Virus record (IMG/VR): IMGVR_UViG_3300026549_001031
DNA length: 64,000 nt
Direction: 5' to 3' (one strand)
Origin: a virus
Lineage: Duplodnaviria; Heunggongvirae; Uroviricota; Caudoviricetes
The notes under the pieces are model-generated. The model did no database searches. It was not told the DNA's origin and saw only the letters and a list, made by a program, of their open reading frames with translations. This document shows positions 15,105-31,660 of the stretch, piece by piece. Within the stretch, counting starts at the first letter, position 1, and each line of letters begins with the position of its first letter. A program made the translations under genes and the position numbers.

Positions 15105-15133
15105 TTGACAGAGTGGAATTTATATGGTAAGAT
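15105..15133 (+). promoter_or_regulatory. sigma-A promoter of tRNA cluster 2
   Basis: TTGACA-17-TAAGAT. Confidence 0.7.
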
Positions 15134-15177
15134 AGATATATGTTAAGGGAAAGGAAAACATATTAAGAAAGAAATAT

Positions 15178-15257
15178 CCCCGTCAAGTTTTCAATGGGAA
15201 AACACTGTTAGTAAGCGCGCTACAGAGATGTTAGGTTCGATCCCTAAGGCGTGGGGC
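15178..15257 (+). ncRNA. tRNA-like RNA with extended, bulged anticodon arm
   Basis: D arm GTTTT/AAAAC, T arm TTAGG-TTCGATC-CCTAA, acceptor CCCCGTC/GGCGTGGGG; anticodon arm CTGT(T)AGT-AAGCGC-GCT-ACAG has no 7-nt loop. Confidence 0.6.
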
Positions 15258-15295
15258 TAGTCAGTTTAGTTAATAGACTGGCATTAAAAGAATAA

Positions 15296-15368
15296 TCCTT
15301 CATAGCTCAGTAGGTAGAGCGCCTGACTGTTAATCAGGTTGTCGCAGGTTCGAGCCCTGCTGGAGGAG
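15296..15368 (+). tRNA. tRNA-Asn(GTT)
   Basis: CCTGA-CTGTTAA-TCAGG, canonical cloverleaf. Confidence 0.92.
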
Positions 15369-15568
15369 CTTTTAAACATTGATATTAAATCAATGGTGCA
15401 TGAGGTAGTTTCTGACTTGGCAAGAGAAAAGTGGAATGAATTAAGAGGTGACCAGCTTGTGAAAAATGTTAAGACATCACAAGTAGCAGATAGAATCGTT
15501 AGTGAGTTATCAGACAGAATAGTTCATGATTTGACGATTAAGGTTTATAGTAGTAATTAAGAAGATAT

Positions 15569-15641
15569 GGGTCATTAGCTCAGTTGGGAGAGCACGTGAC
15601 TTTTAATCACGGGGTCATGGGTTCAAATCCCATATGGCTCA
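15569..15641 (+). tRNA. tRNA-Lys(TTT)
   Basis: CGTGA-CTTTTAA-TCACG, canonical cloverleaf. Confidence 0.92.
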
Positions 15642-15682
15642 TTGATAGGCTTCACAACCATTAAAATTAAGATAAGGTGTAT

Positions 15683-15816
15683 GACTGCTGAGAGAGCATT
15701 TGTATTTTTAGGTATAGGCAGTCGAGAGGTTCAGTAGAGAAGAGTATCTTGCCTAACAATTGTGTTAGGAGATCGCAAGTAGTAACGCGCCGCCTGGACC
15801 GCAGAGAAAAATACAA
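15683..15816 (+). ncRNA. candidate structured RNA in tRNA spacer
   Basis: Helices GACTGC/GCAGTC, TTGTATTTTT/AAAAATACAA, GGTTCAG/CTGGACC, CCTAACA/TGTTAGG. Confidence 0.45.
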
Positions 15817-15824
15817 TTTAATAT

Positions 15825-15898
15825 GGACCATTAGCTCAGCTGGTTAGAGCAGTCGGCTCATAACCGATCGGTCCGGGGTTCGAGTCCCTGATGGTCCA
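15825..15898 (+). tRNA. tRNA with CAT anticodon (Ile2-type body)
   Basis: GTCGG-CTCATAA-CCGAT; GGACCAT...ATGGTCCA resembles Firmicute tRNA-Ile2. Confidence 0.88.
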
Positions 15899-15903
15899 CT
15901 ACA

Positions 15904-16022
15904 TTCTATGTGAGGTTATTGACGGTGGTCAATGCTAAAGTTCCTTAAAGGTTTCTGCTGTAACAGGTGGAGTAATATTAAACACGTGGTTTCGTGTGTT
16001 CAACCATGCGACTTACATAGAG
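15904..16022 (+). ncRNA. candidate multibranch structured RNA
   Basis: Closing stem TTCTATGTGAG/CTTACATAGAG enclosing three hairpins. Confidence 0.5.
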
Positions 16023-16063
16023 GGTAACAAGGGCATTAATACTAATGCCCTTAACAATGAAAA

Positions 16064-16147
16064 CGCTGCATGTCCGGGTGGTGAGGGAGCGGTCTTGAAA
16101 ACCGTTGGATGTAACAGTCTTGCAGGTTCAAATCCTGTGTGCAGCGC
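16064..16147 (+). tRNA. tRNA-Ser(TGA)
   Basis: GCGGT-CTTGAAA-ACCGT, long variable arm, acceptor CGCTGCA/TGCAGCG. Confidence 0.82.
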
Positions 16148-16177
16148 TAGCATGTTTAATCATGCAAAATAGAATAT

Positions 16178-16265
16178 GTAGTTGTACTCAAGAGGTTTAA
16201 GAGGATCCCCTGCTAAGGGATTAGGTCAGTAAAATGATGCATGGGTTCGAATCCCATCAACTACG
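16178..16265 (+). tRNA. tRNA-Ser(GCT)
   Basis: ATCCC-CTGCTAA-GGGAT, long variable arm, acceptor GTAGTTG/CAACTAC. Confidence 0.88.
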
Positions 16266-16267
16266 CT

Positions 16268-16346
16268 AGGTGCTTTTGGTTCTTACAGCAATTTTTCAGG
16301 CATAGACTTTTAATCTATAAACCATACAGAATCATGTTTAGCACTT
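16268..16346 (+). ncRNA. TACAGCAAT-motif RNA 'A' carrying a tRNA-Lys(UUU) anticodon stem-loop
   Basis: Stem TGGTTCT/AGAATCA, TACAGCAAT 16284-16292, ATAGA-CTTTTAA-TCTAT 16302-16318; no D or T arm. Confidence 0.7.
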
Positions 16347-16351
16347 AAAAT

Positions 16352-16423
16352 GTGGGTATAGTACATCGGCTAGTACGCTAGTCTTCCACACTAGATAAAC
16401 GGGTTCGATTCCCGTTACCCACT
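16352..16423 (+). tRNA. tRNA-Gly(TCC)
   Basis: CTAGT-CTTCCAC-ACTAG; acceptor GTGGGTA/TACCCAC, U73. Confidence 0.88.
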
Positions 16424-16425
16424 TA

Positions 16426-16540
16426 ATAAATAATGGAGTACATGGGGTTGCCTGGCAGGGCTGAACGGTTCAACTCCGTCTCGAAGTGTGGTACACATAA
16501 GATATAAAAGCAGTTCAAGTCTGCTCGCTTCATTGTTTAT
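16426..16540 (+). ncRNA. tRNA-like RNA with two T-arm-like hairpins
   Basis: ACGG-TTCAACT-CCGT and AGCAG-TTCAAGT-CTGCT inside a closing stem ATAAATAATGGAGT/GCTTCATTGTTTAT. Confidence 0.55.
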
Positions 16541-16546
16541 TTAATA

Positions 16547-16630
16547 TCTCTTCATAGCTCAAGGGTGGAGTACCCGTCAGTTGATTAGATTCAATCGGGT
16601 GGTTGCAGGTTCGAGTCCTGCTGAAGGGAA
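16547..16630 (+). ncRNA. tRNA-Asn-like body with ~10-nt insertion in the anticodon arm
   Basis: Acceptor (T)CTCTTCA/TGAAGGG(A), D arm GCTC/GAGT, T arm GCAGG-TTCGAGT-CCTGC; anticodon arm CCCG-TCA-GTTGA-TTAGAT-TCAAT-CGGG. Confidence 0.65.
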
Positions 16631-16669
16631 TTCAAGCATCATATCAGATGATGTTTGAAAATTAAATAT

Positions 16670-16743
16670 GCCGACATAGCTCTAATTGGTAGAGCGAGAG
16701 CCTTGTAATCTCTAGGTTGTCAGTTCGAGTCTGACTGTCGGCT
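16670..16743 (+). tRNA. tRNA-Thr(TGT)
   Basis: AGAGC-CTTGTAA-TCTCT (one mismatch); acceptor GCCGACA/TGTCGGC. Confidence 0.85.
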
Positions 16744-16790
16744 CTCTTATCTCAGATCGCTCAATGAGATAAGAATCCTTTGTATAACTT

Positions 16791-16836
16791 AAAAGGTGCC
16801 ATGCATTACAATTTATGTGGTGTGTGGCACTTTTTA
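16791..16836 (+). terminator. terminator ending tRNA cluster 2
   Basis: AAAAGGTGCCATGCA...TGTGTGGCACTTTTT. Confidence 0.7.
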
Positions 16837-18543: not shown

Positions 18544-19518
18544 GTGTTAACAGCTAACTTAAATAAAAGGTTCTGTAGGGATACAGGAACAAGCATTGCA
18601 GTGTTTATTGATCCTTATTTTTCAGAGAGAATCAAGTTGCTTGGACTTGAGGAAAAGTACATGGACTTTGAGAAAATGATCAATGAACAGTTTGGAGGAA
18701 TTGAACAACAGTACTTTGAGTATTGTGAACAGGTAGAAAAAGAGGTTCTAGCATTTCTAAAAGATAGTGAGTCACTAAAAAGTTTGCAGACTTGTGATAT
18801 GAGCAAGTATAAAAATACTTTTAGCATTCCTAGTGGAAATGTTTACAAGGGTGACAACATTGGTAAAAAGTACATAAGCATTGATATGGCTAAAGCAAAC
18901 TTCAGTGCATTAGTTCACTACGAGAAAGAAATTGGAATGGACAGTGCAGAAAAGAGTTTTGGACAGTTATGCGGATATGATTACAATAAGTTTATTGATC
19001 ACTTCACAGATAATAAGTTTGTTGCAGAGTCAAAATATGTGAGACAGTACATTTTTGGTCACTGCTGTTCAAAGAGAGTTGTCAACTATGAAAAATGGAT
19101 TATGGGTACAGTAATGGATAAGTTACCTGCCAGTGCAGTAAATAAGGTAGTTACATTGAATAATGATGAAATCATTATTGATGCAGGGGACTTAACATTA
19201 GAAGAGGTAAATGGTCTTAGAATATTAGTTGAACAGCTTTCAGAAGAAATTGTACCATTACATTTTGAATACTTTACACTGAAAGGTTTCTATGGCACAG
19301 AGCAGAAAGTGTTTATGAAGCAGTTCATTGATGAGAATGGACAGCAGAATGGGTACAAGTTAGCATGTAATAATTCAATTGATACAGTGTTCATTGAGAA
19401 GTATTTGCATGGAATTGAAATTACAGACAATGACTTGGTGTTCAACTGTCAGTATGGTTTAGCAAAATTGCTTAAAGTTCCAGAAGCATACACGAAAGGA
19501 ATCAAAAATGTTCAATGA
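18544..19518 (+). CDS. conserved phage protein with polymerase-palm-like motifs
   Basis: ISIDMAKANFSAL, SKYVRQYIFG, LNNDEIII. Confidence 0.55.
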   Translation: MLTANLNKRFCRDTGTSIAVFIDPYFSERIKLLGLEEKYMDFEKMINEQFGGIEQQYFEYCEQVEKEVLAFLKDSESLKSLQTCDMSKYKNTFSIPSGNVYKGDNIGKKYISIDMAKANFSALVHYEKEIGMDSAEKSFGQLCGYDYNKFIDHFTDNKFVAESKYVRQYIFGHCCSKRVVNYEKWIMGTVMDKLPASAVNKVVTLNNDEIIIDAGDLTLEEVNGLRILVEQLSEEIVPLHFEYFTLKGFYGTEQKVFMKQFIDENGQQNGYKLACNNSIDTVFIEKYLHGIEITDNDLVFNCQYGLAKLLKVPEAYTKGIKNVQ

Positions 19519-20569
19519 GAAATACAGAGAGTTGCTTGAGGGAAGTGAGTATGACTTCTTAAGAGAACACAATAGACTTGGTAAAAAATTAATGATGCTT
19601 GTGGTAAGTGGTAGTAAGGCACATGGAACTGATACACCTACTAGTGATACAGACATTAGGGGTGTGATGGGCAACAGTGTGAATGAACTTGTGAAAGTTG
19701 AAAAAGACTTTGGTACTTTCATTGAAAAAGACACTGATACTTGTATTCATACATTTGATAAAACCTGTGATCTTATGCTATCGTGTAACCCTTCAATCAT
19801 GGAAATGTTTGGATGCAGGGATGAAGAAATCATCTATTATGATAAGCATGGAAAAATGCTGATGGACAATTATGATAAGTTCTTAAGCATTAGGGCAGTG
19901 AGCAGCTTTGGTGGATTTGCTAATGCACAGTTTAACAGAATGAAGCACAGCTTAATTGCAAATGGGCAGAATCCTGATGCAGAGTTAGAAATGCTCAAGC
20001 ATAGTTTAGAAAATGCAATGACAGCGTTTAATGCAACTCATCAGGGAACAGCAATTGATGTACAGATCAGAATGGTAAGTGATCAGGAATTAAAGAGAAT
20101 TCATCCTGAAATTAAGACAACAAGCGAATATGACAAACATCACATTTTAGTTAATGGACACTTTAATGAAGCAGATGTCACTGATTTTAAGACAGTAATT
20201 AGTGAGTTACACAAGATTCAAAGTGAGTATGGCAAGTTGAATAAAGAGAATACAAAGAAAACAGATATTAAGCTTGCTAAACATATGATGGACCTGGTTT
20301 ATATTTACCTTGTTGGGGCAGATCTGAACAGTGGAAAAGGAATGATTACTTACAGAGAAAAAGAGCATGACATGCTGATGGATATTAGGAACATGAAGTA
20401 TTTAACACCAGATGGGTTGAAAGTAAAATCTGACTTCTATGATTTGCTGAATGACATTGAAAAAGAATATATGTATACAGCTAAAAATTGTGTATTACCT
20501 GAGAAACCTGACTATGAGGCAATCAGTGATATGAAAAGACAGGTTTATTTAGATATGCTAGCAGGATAG
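19508..20569 (+). CDS. Pol-beta superfamily nucleotidyltransferase (RlaP/Nuc-transf-like)
   Basis: VSGSKAHGTDTPTSDTDIRGV...CNPSIMEMF...LPEKPD. Confidence 0.85.
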   Translation: MFNEKYRELLEGSEYDFLREHNRLGKKLMMLVVSGSKAHGTDTPTSDTDIRGVMGNSVNELVKVEKDFGTFIEKDTDTCIHTFDKTCDLMLSCNPSIMEMFGCRDEEIIYYDKHGKMLMDNYDKFLSIRAVSSFGGFANAQFNRMKHSLIANGQNPDAELEMLKHSLENAMTAFNATHQGTAIDVQIRMVSDQELKRIHPEIKTTSEYDKHHILVNGHFNEADVTDFKTVISELHKIQSEYGKLNKENTKKTDIKLAKHMMDLVYIYLVGADLNSGKGMITYREKEHDMLMDIRNMKYLTPDGLKVKSDFYDLLNDIEKEYMYTAKNCVLPEKPDYEAISDMKRQVYLDMLAG

Positions 20570-21157: not shown

Positions 21158-21340
21158 TTAGATATTAGACTTAGCCTTGGAAATCATTTCCTTGATCATC
21201 TGTCCTCCTACTCGACCTGCATCTTTTGCAGTTAAGCTTGGGGAAGTTAAGTCAATACCTAACTCGTTTGCAACTTCATTCTTAAATTTATTGAGATTAG
21301 ATTTCATCTCCTGTGAAAATTCGTCTGTACGTCTTGTCAT
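21158..21340 (-). CDS. alpha/beta-type small acid-soluble spore protein (SASP)
   Basis: LNKFKNEVANELGI...LTAKDAGRVGGQMIKEMI; AAAGGAG RBS on the minus strand. Confidence 0.9.
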   Translation of the reverse strand: MTRRTDEFSQEMKSNLNKFKNEVANELGIDLTSPSLTAKDAGRVGGQMIKEMISKAKSNI

Positions 21341-22229: not shown

Positions 22230-22287
22230 GGTGTACTTACAGCAATCTTTTATAAAACATTTCAGGGTAAAGTTTTTATAGTACACT
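22230..22287 (+). ncRNA. TACAGCAAT-motif RNA 'B'
   Basis: Stem GGTGTACT/AGTACACT; TACAGCAAT 22238-22246; inner hairpin TATAAAAC/GTTTTTATA. Confidence 0.7.
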
Positions 22288-22299
22288 GTAGTTAAGTTT

Positions 22300-22354
22300 G
22301 AGGTGCCTACAGCAATTTTTAAATCACATTAGGCATGTATGAAATGTGCACCTT
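22300..22354 (+). ncRNA. TACAGCAAT-motif RNA 'C'
   Basis: Stem GAGGTGC/GCACCTT; TACAGCAAT 22308-22316; ends 6 nt before the AGGAGG RBS. Confidence 0.7.
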
Positions 22355-22374: not shown

Positions 22375-23859
22375 ATGGGTTTAGGATCAGCAATCAGAGA
22401 AGAGGCGTCATGGGGAAAAACGACCAATGGTGCAGATGCAAGGGTAGCAACTGGCAGTGCTTTGCTTGATATGTTTGGACGTGCAGGAGCAATGCGTGGA
22501 GCAGATGAGATTGATAAGCAGATTATGATCTCACAGGCATTCAAGGAAAATGCAGACTTCGCAGTGAAGTTATTGTTCTACACGAGAGATGTTCGTGAGG
22601 GCTATGGTGAAAGAGATACCTTCCATACCATGTTAAGATGGCTTGCATTTGAATCAAAAGAGTCAGTGGAGAAAAATCTCTGGGCAATTCTGGAGTTTGG
22701 AAGAGCAAGTGACCTTTATGCACTTGTTGGAACACCTGCAGAGGATGCAATGTGGGAGTTTATGAGAAATCAGTTCGAACTCGACTACAAAAACATGCAG
22801 GCAGGTAAGAGTATTTCACTACTTGCAAAATGGATGGCTTCGCCTAATTCAAGAACAGCTAAGAAAAAGCAGCTTGGTAAACTGACAGCTAAGGCACTTG
22901 GCTACTCATACAAAAATATGAGAGAGCTTAAGCAGAAAATCAGTGCAATGCGTAAATACCTTGATCTGCCTGAAGTAAAAATGGCAGCAGGCAAGTGGGG
23001 CGAGATTGAGTACAGTACTTGCGCATCGAAAGCACTTCTGTATCACAAGAATGCATTTGCAAGACATGATATGCAGAGATGGCAGGAATACCTGGAGTCA
23101 GTTAACAAGGGCGAAGAGAAGATGAATACAGGCACTTTGACACCTTGTGACATTGTTGCAAAATACAATGACCTGTCTAATGTAGACAAGGCATTGGAGA
23201 CAATGTGGGATAACCTTGAGGATGTAAACGATGGCAATGTGCTTGTAATGGCAGATACATCAGGTTCAATGTTCCACAATCATTTTGGAGGATTAAGACC
23301 TATTTACGTGTCAGTTGCATTGGCAATTTACTTTGCTAAGCATAACAAGGGAGACCTCAAAAACTTGTTTATGACATTTGAGAGTAATCCTCACTTCATT
23401 GAAATTAAGGAGGCTTCACTGTTTGATACAATTCATGCAGTAAAAAAGGCAGAATGGGGCAATAGTACAAACCTTGTGAAAGCATTTGATAAATTGCTTG
23501 AGGTCTGTGTTAAAGGTGGTGTGTCACAGGAAGATATGCCTAAAGCAATCCTTGTTGTTTCTGATATGCAGATCAATTCAGCATCAAGTGCTTGTGATGG
23601 GGAGGGTCGTATCAGTTTCTTTGAAAGCATGTCTAAGAAATATGAGAAGGCAGGATACAAAATGCCACAGCTTGTATTTTGGAATGTAAATGCAAAGAGA
23701 GCAACATTCCATGCATCAAAAGATGATGCAGGAGCATCCCTTGTAAGTGGATTTTCAGTGAATGTGTTTAAGCAGGTCATCGAATGTATTGGTTCTACAC
23801 CATACGAGTTGATGATGAGCATTCTTGAATCCGAGAGATACAAGGACATTGTTGCATAA
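22375..23859 (+). CDS. DUF2828-family protein (TROVE/Ro60-like helical region plus vWA domain)
   Basis: TTNGA, LLFYTRDVREGYGER, SLLAKWM, vWA MIDAS DTSGSM, WGNSTNL, VVSDMQ, LVFWNV, LVSGFS. Confidence 0.85.
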   Translation: MGLGSAIREEASWGKTTNGADARVATGSALLDMFGRAGAMRGADEIDKQIMISQAFKENADFAVKLLFYTRDVREGYGERDTFHTMLRWLAFESKESVEKNLWAILEFGRASDLYALVGTPAEDAMWEFMRNQFELDYKNMQAGKSISLLAKWMASPNSRTAKKKQLGKLTAKALGYSYKNMRELKQKISAMRKYLDLPEVKMAAGKWGEIEYSTCASKALLYHKNAFARHDMQRWQEYLESVNKGEEKMNTGTLTPCDIVAKYNDLSNVDKALETMWDNLEDVNDGNVLVMADTSGSMFHNHFGGLRPIYVSVALAIYFAKHNKGDLKNLFMTFESNPHFIEIKEASLFDTIHAVKKAEWGNSTNLVKAFDKLLEVCVKGGVSQEDMPKAILVVSDMQINSASSACDGEGRISFFESMSKKYEKAGYKMPQLVFWNVNAKRATFHASKDDAGASLVSGFSVNVFKQVIECIGSTPYELMMSILESERYKDIVA

Positions 23860-23944: not shown

Positions 23945-24078
23945 GACGATGTAGCTCAGCTGGTAGAGCACCTGGAATATATTTTTGTGATTCATGTTGT
24001 TTATCTGTGAATCCTACAGCAATCATTTTTAAATGTTGGCAGCCAGGGGGGTCATAGGTTCGAATCCTATCATCGTCA
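23945..24078 (+). ncRNA. TACAGCAAT-motif RNA 'D': full tRNA body with a 67-nt insert replacing the anticodon loop (permuted Y-RNA/YrlA-like)
   Basis: Acceptor GACGATG/CATCGTC-A, D arm GCTC-AGCTGGTA-GAGC, stem CCTGG/CCAGG, T arm ATAGG-TTCGAAT-CCTAT; insert holds GATTCAT/GTGAATC plus CTACAGCAAT. Confidence 0.8.
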
Positions 24079-29968: not shown

Positions 29969-31660
29969 ATGTTAGAGATTAAAGGAAAGAATAATACTTG
30001 TAAGGTTTTTACTGATGTCATTGATAGTGCAACAGTTGGGCAGTTGACTAGTTTAATGAATACAGAGGCAGTTAAGGGTAGTACAGTAAGAATTATGAGT
30101 GACTGTCATGCTGGAGCAGGTTCTGTCATTGGAACAACTATGACATTACATGATAAGGTAATACCTAACCTGGTTGGGGTGGACATTGGTTGTTTTACAG
30201 GAGATACAAAGGTGTTTACAGCTAGTGGCTCATGGGCAAAGATTAAAGACCTTGTGGATAAGGGAGTATTCACAGTAGATTCCTATGATACAGAGACTAG
30301 AAGTTTTGTGACAAGTAAAGCAGTAGCAAAGAAAACAAGAGAAAATGCACAGCTTGTTAAGGTAGTGTATCATACAGTATCAAGTATCAATGAGAAGCAG
30401 TTTGAAGTTTACTGTACACCTGATCATAAGTTCTTGACCAGGGGGAATAATGGTGATGAGCATTGGGTTGAGGCAAGTCACTTAAGCTTGGGTATTGAGT
30501 TGGTATCAGAAGATTACAGAGTCATTGTTGATGATGTATGTAGTACAGATAGAGTAGAGGATGTGTACTGTTTAACAGTAGAGGATACACATAGTTTTCT
30601 TATTGAGGGCAGTGTAGTAGTTCACAATTGCGGAATGTTAGCAATTAAATTAAAGGAAAAGCGTATTGATTTTACTAAATTGGACAGTGTTATTAGAAAA
30701 TATGTACCTAGTGGAAAAGAGAGCAACAGTGAGTCTAAAGAGGACAGAACAAGTTTAGATGTTAGGGCATTAAGGTGTTTTGGTAAGACAGGGGCAGCAA
30801 TTAGAGAGGAACTTGCATATAGAAGTGTAGGTACACTGGGAGGTGGGAATCACTTCATTGAGATAGACAAGGATGCTCAGGGTTGTTTATGGTTGGTCAT
30901 TCATACTGGAAGCAGACAGCTTGGAATTGGAGTTTGCAAATATTATCAGGATTTAGCTTACATTAAGTTAAAAGATAAGTTCAATGGTGGCTCAAAGAAA
31001 GACAAGATGAATGAGATAATTGGCAGACTGAAGTCAGAGGGTAGACAGCAGGAGATTAGCAAGGAACTTGATAAGTTTAATAAAACATATAATGAAAAAC
31101 ATCCTCCTATTTCTCATGAGCTAGCATATGTAGAAGGCAGTGATTTTGATGATTACATTCATGATATGAAAATGGTGCAGGATCATGCATGTTGCAACAG
31201 GGCTGAAATTGCTAGAATCATACTTAAGAAAGCAAAGTTGCATGAGGTTGACAGGTTCGAGACAATCCATAACTATATTGATACAGAGAATATGATATTA
31301 AGAAAAGGAGCGATTAGTGCACAAGCAGGTGAAAGAGTGCTAATACCATTAAATATGAGAGATGGATCATTGATTTGTTTAGGTAAGGGCAATCCTGATT
31401 GGAACTACAGCGCACCTCATGGAGCAGGTCGTTTAATGAGCAGGGCACAGGCTAAAGAGAAAATTGCAGTGAAGGATTTTCAGAAAAGCATGGATGGAAT
31501 TTTCACTACTTGTGTAGGTAGAGGTACAATTGATGAAAGTCCGATGGCATATAAGCCAATGGAGAGTATCATTGAAAATATTGGAGATACAGTAGAAATT
31601 GTAGAGAGGATTTTACCTGTATACAATTTCAAGGCTGGCAGTGAGGATGAGGAGGAATAA
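29969..31660 (+). CDS. rtcB: RtcB RNA ligase containing a mini-intein
   Basis: SDCHAG, VGVDIG|C, GTLGGGNHFIE, HTGSR, HNY, RKGA, SAPHGAGR, DESPMAYK. Confidence 0.95.
   Translation: MLEIKGKNNTCKVFTDVIDSATVGQLTSLMNTEAVKGSTVRIMSDCHAGAGSVIGTTMTLHDKVIPNLVGVDIGCFTGDTKVFTASGSWAKIKDLVDKGVFTVDSYDTETRSFVTSKAVAKKTRENAQLVKVVYHTVSSINEKQFEVYCTPDHKFLTRGNNGDEHWVEASHLSLGIELVSEDYRVIVDDVCSTDRVEDVYCLTVEDTHSFLIEGSVVVHNCGMLAIKLKEKRIDFTKLDSVIRKYVPSGKESNSESKEDRTSLDVRALRCFGKTGAAIREELAYRSVGTLGGGNHFIEIDKDAQGCLWLVIHTGSRQLGIGVCKYYQDLAYIKLKDKFNGGSKKDKMNEIIGRLKSEGRQQEISKELDKFNKTYNEKHPPISHELAYVEGSDFDDYIHDMKMVQDHACCNRAEIARIILKKAKLHEVDRFETIHNYIDTENMILRKGAISAQAGERVLIPLNMRDGSLICLGKGNPDWNYSAPHGAGRLMSRAQAKEKIAVKDFQKSMDGIFTTCVGRGTIDESPMAYKPMESIIENIGDTVEIVERILPVYNFKAGSEDEEE
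30191..30628 (+). mobile_element. mini-intein (146 aa, no homing endonuclease)
   Basis: CFTGDT start, TPDHKF block B, VYCLTV block F, VVVHN|C end. Confidence 0.92.

Follow-up and report, generated by a model that had tools for sequence, protein, structure and literature searches.

Cleavage of tRNAs is a common bacterial defence, and the known phage answers to it are resistant tRNAs or repair enzymes. Why would a phage also encode the anticodon arm of a tRNA with none of the rest of the molecule around it? The question is raised by a stretch of 64,000 nucleotides (the window) from a large phage carrying two tRNA clusters, an NAD ligase and PHROG matches. The original prediction had placed at 16268-16346 an isolated tRNA-Lys(UUU) anticodon stem-loop, a possible decoy for anticodon nucleases such as PrrC or AriB.

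Between tRNA-Ser(GCU) (16178-16266) on one side and tRNA-Gly(UCC) (16352-16423) on the other, sequence and folding delimit a plus-strand RNA at 16277-16334, hereafter the handle RNA, composed of a 6-bp handle helix, UACAGCAA and a 5-bp hairpin. The 5′ strand of the handle helix (16277-16282) pairs with its 3′ strand (16329-16334), with pair probabilities of 0.76-0.99; the 3′ strand is identified by folding and covariation. A TTA spacer and the motif CAGCAA (16283-16291), a putative site for a Ro60-like protein, precede the tRNA-Lys(UUU)-type anticodon stem-loop (16302-16318, anticodon UUU at 16309-16311). This hairpin is as it was first described: the stem (16302-16306/16314-16318) is a perfect Watson-Crick helix of 5 bp (pair probabilities 0.88-0.97), and the loop (16307-16313) reads CTTTTAA, the same as that of tRNA-Lys(UUU). 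The span originally assigned to the element needs trimming, because the conserved RNA occupies about 16276-16335 of it and the outer stem included in the span is lineage-specific. This 8-bp spacer stem (16267-16274 with 16340-16347, plus strand), predicted by folding to enclose the RNA, was seen only in this phage lineage, where A16340G in relatives keeps a G-U pair; it resembles other spacer hairpins of the cluster and probably belongs to the precursor rather than to the mature RNA.

What the handle RNA has of a tRNA is the 5-bp anticodon stem and a 7-nt loop with Y32, U33 and R37. As predicted, it contains no acceptor stem, D arm or T arm, which rules out a tRNA gene; ARAGORN, applied to the window, gave no match to it, nor did Rfam on 16268-16346 at the gathering threshold or at E up to 5. 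The 11-mer GACTTTTAATC has two copies on the plus strand of the window, one in the handle RNA and one in the phage's own tRNA-Lys(UUU) (15568-15642, plus strand), which has the same loop on a different stem. Perfect 5-bp hairpins with an anticodon-type loop number 13 on this strand: 11 in tRNA genes, one in an ORF, and the handle RNA. A BLASTN search of the element against deposited phages returned chance fragments only. In three relatives, whose DUF2828 proteins (see below) are 89-93% identical, the handle RNA sits at the same place almost unchanged; the whole tRNA cluster is 96-98% identical in these phages, so RNA conservation there is weak evidence. The folding energy of the handle RNA alone is unremarkable (z -1.76) and not significant, and the evidence for it is therefore comparative.

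To sample the family, we used a pattern in which only the motif, the loop and the pair closing the loop were fixed; it returned 119 viral loci. A stem of at least 4 bp surrounded the loop in 19 of 19 loci with a handle helix, against 9 of 95 without one (p 3e-15). Among 22 aligned members, all 12 pairs showed two-sided changes and 97.7% of cells paired, compared with 34-46% in slid controls; the rows of this alignment were chosen for both helices, so that the 19/19 versus 9/95 comparison is the non-circular test. Covariation was found in 7/7 handle columns of the 22 aligned homologues. ACAGCAA is invariant in alignment A2, an invariance that is not independent since the motif belonged to the search pattern.

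A second census avoided the bias towards Lys by using handle-only patterns and yielded 188 de-duplicated handle RNAs, 142 of them without a T arm; the other 46 carry a tRNA-like domain with T arm/D arm. Anticodon-type hairpins occur in 44 of the 142 T-arm-free RNAs against 7.6 +/- 2.6 in shuffles (maximum 17), so that chance would account for about 8 of the 44, in a census that was de-duplicated by shared words rather than by a tree and that favours A+T-rich gut phages. The remaining two thirds of the T-arm-free RNAs have no anticodon hairpin. The cargos obey tRNA loop rules that the census filter did not impose: G37 follows G36 in 13/15 cargos versus 1/45 otherwise (p 3e-10). A remnant resembling G24-S25-A26 precedes the stem in 17/44, compared with a background of 3.5%. 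The loop is kept in homologues while the stem changes with compensation, which is the conservation whose absence would have refuted the original prediction. The Lys cargos have 11 different stems in 11 RNAs; stem G+C is 23% in cargos and 59% in real tRNAs, and 2/12 cargos retain G30-C40 compared with 44/59 tRNAs. It follows that the reader of the hairpin requires the loop to sit on a paired stem but no particular stem sequence. The anticodon-displaying handle RNA is real and under selection, not a product of chance. In three further loci (L041, L048 and L049, of which L048 comes from a giant-virus bin), handle-motif RNAs carry a Lys hairpin followed by a T arm.

Which anticodons are displayed is far from random. 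The 44 cargos comprise Lys UUU (12, of which 11 have the canonical loop), Asn GUU (8), Pro UGG (4), Ser GCU (3), and two each of Ser UGA, Phe, Gly, Pro GGG and Thr GGU, so that homologues do present other anticodon loops beside the two dominant ones. Among 1300 tRNA genes at the same loci, by comparison, Lys(UUU) and Asn(GUU) make up 4% each, against 12/44 and 8/44 of the cargos (p 1e-7 and 3e-4, respectively). Asp (GUC) and Glu anticodons are absent from the census of 44, although GAT, GAG and GAA are among the top codons of this phage; codon usage is thus not supported here as the cause of the Lys/Asn skew, given that Asp and Glu codons are as frequent and are not displayed. Smaller, protein-anchored sets gave similar anticodon lists (Tyr, Ser, Lys and Asn). 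At two of 19 loci (L159 and L172), the real tRNA-Lys has U32 and the handle RNA has C32, as would be expected if a sensitive bait accompanied a resistant tRNA.

The presumed protein partner is encoded at 22375-23859 (plus strand) by a DUF2828/DUF7788 gene, whose product is predicted to form a Ro60-like ring (helical domain plus vWA). Its AlphaFold model (pLDDT 92.5) retrieved only Ro60/TROVE structures at Foldseek ranks 1-13 (E 4e-9 to 1e-4), with TM values of 0.45-0.62 and 10-14% identity to solved Ro60s; a PDB sequence search gave no match, and the Ro60 link comes from the fold search. DUF2828 was present in the fetched stretch of 37/61 Lys-hairpin loci compared with 3/215 handle-free loci. 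It lay elsewhere in 18/26 further records, including 6/6 that were at least 90% complete, and the eight negatives were 4-53% complete. Of the deposited phage records, 695 contain a homologue, among them those of Felix O1-like, Listeria, Campylobacter and mycobacteriophage L genomes; in mycobacteriophages the protein is named 'Ro-like RNA binding protein'. Handle RNAs lie beside DUF2828 in wV8, Tsamsa, AG20, LeBron, F361 (which displays an Ile hairpin), iF6, S-CoN_Ph3 and LAh_8, and the class extends to proteobacterial phages. The cultured Aeromonas phage LAh_8 (L590; MK838114.1) has seven handle RNAs at 1455-2950, among them Lys(UUU) and Met(CAU) hairpins; the set lies upstream of DUF2828 and extends across its annotated start. 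Co-occurrence and the predicted fold together support the DUF2828 ring as the probable partner of the handle RNA, in line with the proposed tie to a DUF2828 particle. A literature search on DUF2828, phage tRNA-mimic decoys and Ro60 with anticodon stem-loops, which left most subscription papers outside its reach, found nothing relevant.

Three further copies of CAGCAA in the window, at 22239, 22309 and 24016, fall around this gene. Two sibling handle RNAs, at 22230-22287 and 22300-22354 (plus strand; 29.2 and 27.0 bits to model R1), lie directly upstream of DUF2828 and have no anticodon cargo. RNA D (23945-24078, plus strand) also has a T arm/D arm domain: it is an otherwise normal tRNA body in which a circularly permuted handle, 3′ strand first, replaces the anticodon loop. 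Its earlier description as a body without an anticodon holds for the loop, but RNA D keeps its own anticodon stem. The further idea that the handle RNA complements RNA D found no support: predicted pairing in trans (-1.0 kcal/mol) equals that obtained with shuffled sequences (-1.05 +/- 1.8), hairpin-only RNAs and body-only RNAs are found together no more often than chance predicts (10/33 vs 16/59 loci), and the handle that both RNAs carry is the only link between them.

The phage sequence is present in bovine gut runs from 11 studies, and in a relative the DUF2828 gene is located on a gut contig of 465 kb (L480). A small acid-soluble spore protein (SASP) gene at 21158-21340 (minus strand), assigned by orthology, is also carried by relatives, which indicates that the host is probably a spore-forming Firmicute. 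The handle RNA is part of a plus-strand tRNA operon (15105-16836) bounded by a promoter-like site (15105-15133) and a terminator-like site (16790-16836), both defined by consensus matches only. For context, the phage encodes an RlaP-family RNA repair nucleotidyltransferase (19508-20569, plus strand), a CCA-type enzyme nearby, and an RtcB RNA ligase (29969-31660, plus strand), a possible repair partner interrupted by an intein that is also found in relatives. In two metatranscriptomes, contig depth was 289 and 108 for the DUF2828 unit and 18.8 and 8.9 for the contig of the handle RNA; RNA D lies within the unit of highest depth. Depth was uneven with holes in both metatranscriptomes and flat in the DNA run, which suggests transcription; such contigs reveal neither strand, ends nor small-RNA level. 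In one run of raw reads (X21), the phage was absent apart from tRNA look-alikes.

The same tRNA cluster holds other unusual plus-strand RNAs. The first RNA after the promoter (15177-15258) is tRNA-like, with acceptor, D and T arms and a 13-nt loop in the anticodon arm, and received no ARAGORN or Rfam call. A multi-hairpin structure closed by a 10-bp A/T-rich stem lies between tRNA-Lys and tRNA-Met (15699-15817), and another, with a long closing stem and inner hairpins, at 15906-16022; both are without an Rfam match, and the contig of the latter is the deepest in the tRNA cluster in RNA run X1 (116.8). Between tRNA-Gly and the next tRNA-like gene, 16426-16540 contains two T-loop-like hairpins within a long terminal stem. 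That gene (16547-16630) is called tRNA-Ser(UGA) by ARAGORN and is uncalled in the three close relatives; its body resembles tRNA-Asn and its anticodon arm is enlarged.

The handle RNA system is not confined to phages. In one clostridial class, DUF2828 was found in 13 of 399 sampled genomes, nearly all of them with handle arrays, and Lys hairpins occur among the bacterial handle RNAs as well; these genomes are metagenome-assembled, and some of the other bacterial matches are probably misbinned phage contigs. The clostridial genes often follow the order WYL/WCX regulators, handle RNAs, DUF2828, SPFH and RtcB, among housekeeping genes. The loci L455, L472, L458, L446 and L560-L570 each have a WYL/WCX pair, two to seven handle RNAs, DUF2828, in some cases SPFH, and RtcB. 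The arrays of the bacterial operons also hold several cargos, shared by different genomes, that belong to neither the anticodon hairpins nor the tRNA bodies. A general partnership with RtcB was rejected for phages, where the ligase was found in 2 of 34 viral records tested and in 1 of 25 Lys-hairpin carrier phages searched. Strong matches to RNA ligases of other families occur in about 15 of 28 carriers compared with one of five controls, a control set too small for a firm comparison.

What, then, is the displayed loop for? We see an even chance that the handle RNA is a Y-RNA-like adaptor presenting an anticodon bait to tRNA nucleases that read the loop. On this account, it would be transcribed together with the tRNA cluster and released by processing as an RNA of about 60 nt. 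Its terminal helix and UACAGCAA may form the handle bound by the Ro60-like DUF2828 ring, as co-occurrence and fold suggest, and by analogy with Y RNAs the handle would display the bare tRNA-Lys(UUU) anticodon stem-loop as an effector domain. Since the RNA has no acceptor end and can neither be charged nor decode, its loop must have a protein as reader, most likely a host tRNA-targeting toxin that recognises the anticodon loop as such, for example a PrrC/RloC- or colicin-like anticodon nuclease. The ring-stabilised RNA could compete with or trap the toxin, sparing the real tRNA-Lys, and if nicked, its halves would be held by two helices and might be re-sealed by an RNA ligase. A broader proposal, which we hold more tentatively and would put somewhat short of even, is that of a widespread, hitherto undescribed modular RNA class in which one Ro60-like ring loads interchangeable mimics of tRNA parts; bare anticodon hairpins would then counter host defence as renewable decoys or traps for anticodon nucleases, and the displayed anticodons would be a list of host tRNA toxins.

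The Lys/Asn skew fits known toxin targets better than codon use. tRNA-Lys(UUU) is the target of PrrC (PMC10264068), and AriB targets Lys, Thr and Asn tRNAs (PMC12409363). PrrC-type enzymes fit as loop readers because a modified anticodon hairpin in isolation is a substrate for them; base modifications are among the features that PrrC recognises, and another of its substrate cues, a Lys(UUU) anticodon in a paired stem-loop, is present in the handle RNA (PMC1950546). AriB, which had been put forward as a nuclease for the decoy, fits poorly. This enzyme cuts at U36AAUC|A41, loses activity with U39A and needs U16 of the D loop, and grafting its site onto the T5 tRNA did not restore cleavage (PMC12409363). 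The handle RNA has neither a D loop nor the distal contacts nor this site: it has U41, and UCA at 39-41 occurs in none of 11 unbiased Lys cargos, four of which have no U39. A decoy specific to AriB is consequently rejected. In LAh_8, the Lys stem keeps an AriB-type UCA at 39-41.

Several observations count against the bait. A bare hairpin may not carry mnm5s2U34 or t6A37, as several of the modification enzymes for these bases need a whole tRNA. A decoy must be abundant, yet the handle RNA contig is far shallower than the DUF2828 unit, in libraries of a kind that loses small RNAs. The phage's own tRNA-Lys shares the canonical loop, so there is no contrast here between a sensitive decoy and a resistant tRNA. 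The two thirds of T-arm-free handle RNAs that have no anticodon hairpin imply that the family does more than this, and RtcB is rare among carrier phages.

Unlikely, though the strongest of the alternatives, is that the loop recruits LysRS or anticodon-modifying enzymes (MnmA/MnmEG, TsaBDE) to the ring, or titrates them. A comparable case is the Y RNA that tethers Rsr to PNPase; for Y RNAs of bacteria and phages, tethering is the role that has been demonstrated (PMC4201824, PMC12135203). It also agrees with the t6A signature U36-A37-A38, which ends 26/44 cargos compared with 31% of real tRNAs (p 1e-4). Lys and Asn synthetases have a common anticodon-binding fold, but Asp(GUC), of the same synthetase subclass, is not in the census. 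Modification enzymes mostly require the full L shape, and there is no evident reason for a lytic phage to sequester enzymes that it needs.

We consider it improbable that the RNA serves an RNA-repair module as its damage sensor or permanent substrate. In that case the nucleases that attack tRNA would cut the loop as well, and the nicked RNA on the ring would signal to WYL regulators or recruit a ligase rather than soak up nuclease. This would suit the clostridial RNAs, placed between WYL/WCX genes and DUF2828-(SPFH)-RtcB among housekeeping genes, as well as the RtcB, RlaP and CCA-type enzymes of this phage, and a Salmonella operon is induced by damaged tRNA ends (PMC7790460). The rarity of RtcB in viral records (2/34) argues against it, and the WYL genes described here are those of bacterial loci.

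Very improbable, and largely refuted, is a vestige: a handle RNA would have acquired part of a tRNA-Lys gene, which would now be neutral or retained only as any stable hairpin might be. The 17-mer at 16302-16318 recurs unchanged as the anticodon arm of real phage tRNA-Lys genes (L089, L026), which suggests capture from a tRNA gene, and the G24-S25-A26 remnants and the many siblings without such cargo point the same way. Yet all five stem pairs have been exchanged by compensated changes, with a drift to A+T, around a loop that remains canonical. If neutral, the loop should have eroded at the same pace as the linkers, and the G36-G37 rule and the anticodon skew require a reader.

No more credible is a translation effector, a hairpin that enters the ribosome or pairs with AAA codons or with T-box specifier loops of the Firmicute host and modulates translation or amino-acid regulons. 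The canonical 7-nt loop with U33 and purine 37 would allow it, and T-boxes are common in Firmicutes, to which the host probably belongs by its SASP gene. Stem features typical of translating tRNAs are lost, however; T-boxes also need an elbow and an NCCA end, the decoding site would probably not accommodate an RNA bound to the ring, and the class is found in proteobacterial phages too. The least plausible reading, a spacer that acts only in cis in the processing of the tRNA operon and has no independent role, draws on the RNA abutting tRNA-Ser inside the outer stem in a cluster whose other spacers are also hairpins, and fails on homologues in arrays beside DUF2828 with no tRNA nearby (L446, L455, L456, L468, L590).

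If the anticodon bait is true, a non-coding bait consisting of the anticodon arm only would be a third phage answer to tRNA cleavage and an RNA that inhibits tRNA toxins. The Ro60-like DUF2828 gene would thereby acquire a function, and the question of what bacterial Ro/Y-RNA particles do would become testable by a three-base swap.

How does the handle RNA compare with known systems? Our literature search, with most subscription papers outside its range, found no paper on the family. Y RNAs bind Ro60 via a terminal helix, and their second domain engages another protein (PMC4201824; PMC12135203). Those known from bacteria and phages (YrlA/YrlB, Yrn1; Rfam RF02553; Yrl1/Yrl2 with the phiLo Ro60, PMC12135203) have in common with the handle RNA a terminal helix, a short conserved 5′ motif, a tRNA-mimicking second domain, a gene beside a Ro60-fold protein and presence in phages. 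The broad Y RNA features are thus present here: a terminal helix joining the two ends, accompanied by a conserved motif, and a protein of predicted Ro60 fold encoded alongside. The bacterial WYL-DUF2828-RtcB operons resemble the rsr-yrlBA-rtcBA tRNA-damage operon (PMC4201824, PMC7790460) in carrying RtcB, and a role as competitive inhibitor has been suggested for YrlA (PMC7790460). YrlA differs in its motif GNCGAA (GNCGAAN0-1G, PMC4201824) near the 5′ end, where the handle RNA has UACAGCAA, and in mimicking the D, T and acceptor arms rather than the anticodon arm; membership of YrlA (RF02553) fails on the motif, the T/D-arm domain and the Rfam score. Ro60/Rsr systems also differ in their protein, here DUF2828/DUF7788, in the several cargos per genome found here, and in RtcR as opposed to WYL-type regulators.

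Dictyostelid Class I RNAs (RF01414; PMC7919456) have the same 42-65 nt size, a short stem joining the ends, a variable interior, and an unpaired conserved motif ending in CAA beside the 5′ strand. The sibling, taken as 22231-22288, gives a weak full-length RF01414 match (23.5 bits, below the gathering score of 41.5). Class I RNAs, however, are reported only from Dictyostelia, with a DUSE promoter and no anticodon cargo described, whereas the handle RNA comes from a bovine-gut phage and has no RF01414 match; despite the matching stem-plus-motif design, membership fails on Rfam score and genome.

Phage tRNAs that counter anticodon nucleases (T5 tRNA-Lys against PARIS, PMC12409363; PMC10264068) and the repair of PrrC cuts by T4 Pnk/Rnl1 belong to the same conflict, with the same favourite target, tRNA-Lys(UUU). 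T5-type tRNAs are complete, chargeable and mutated to resist, and T4 Pnk/Rnl1 are repair proteins, whereas the handle RNA cannot be charged and retains the canonical loop, which is what one would expect of a bait. Although it belongs neither to YrlA nor to the Class I RNAs nor to the tRNAs, the handle RNA would by analogy be of the Ro60/Y-RNA kind and work like a Y RNA.
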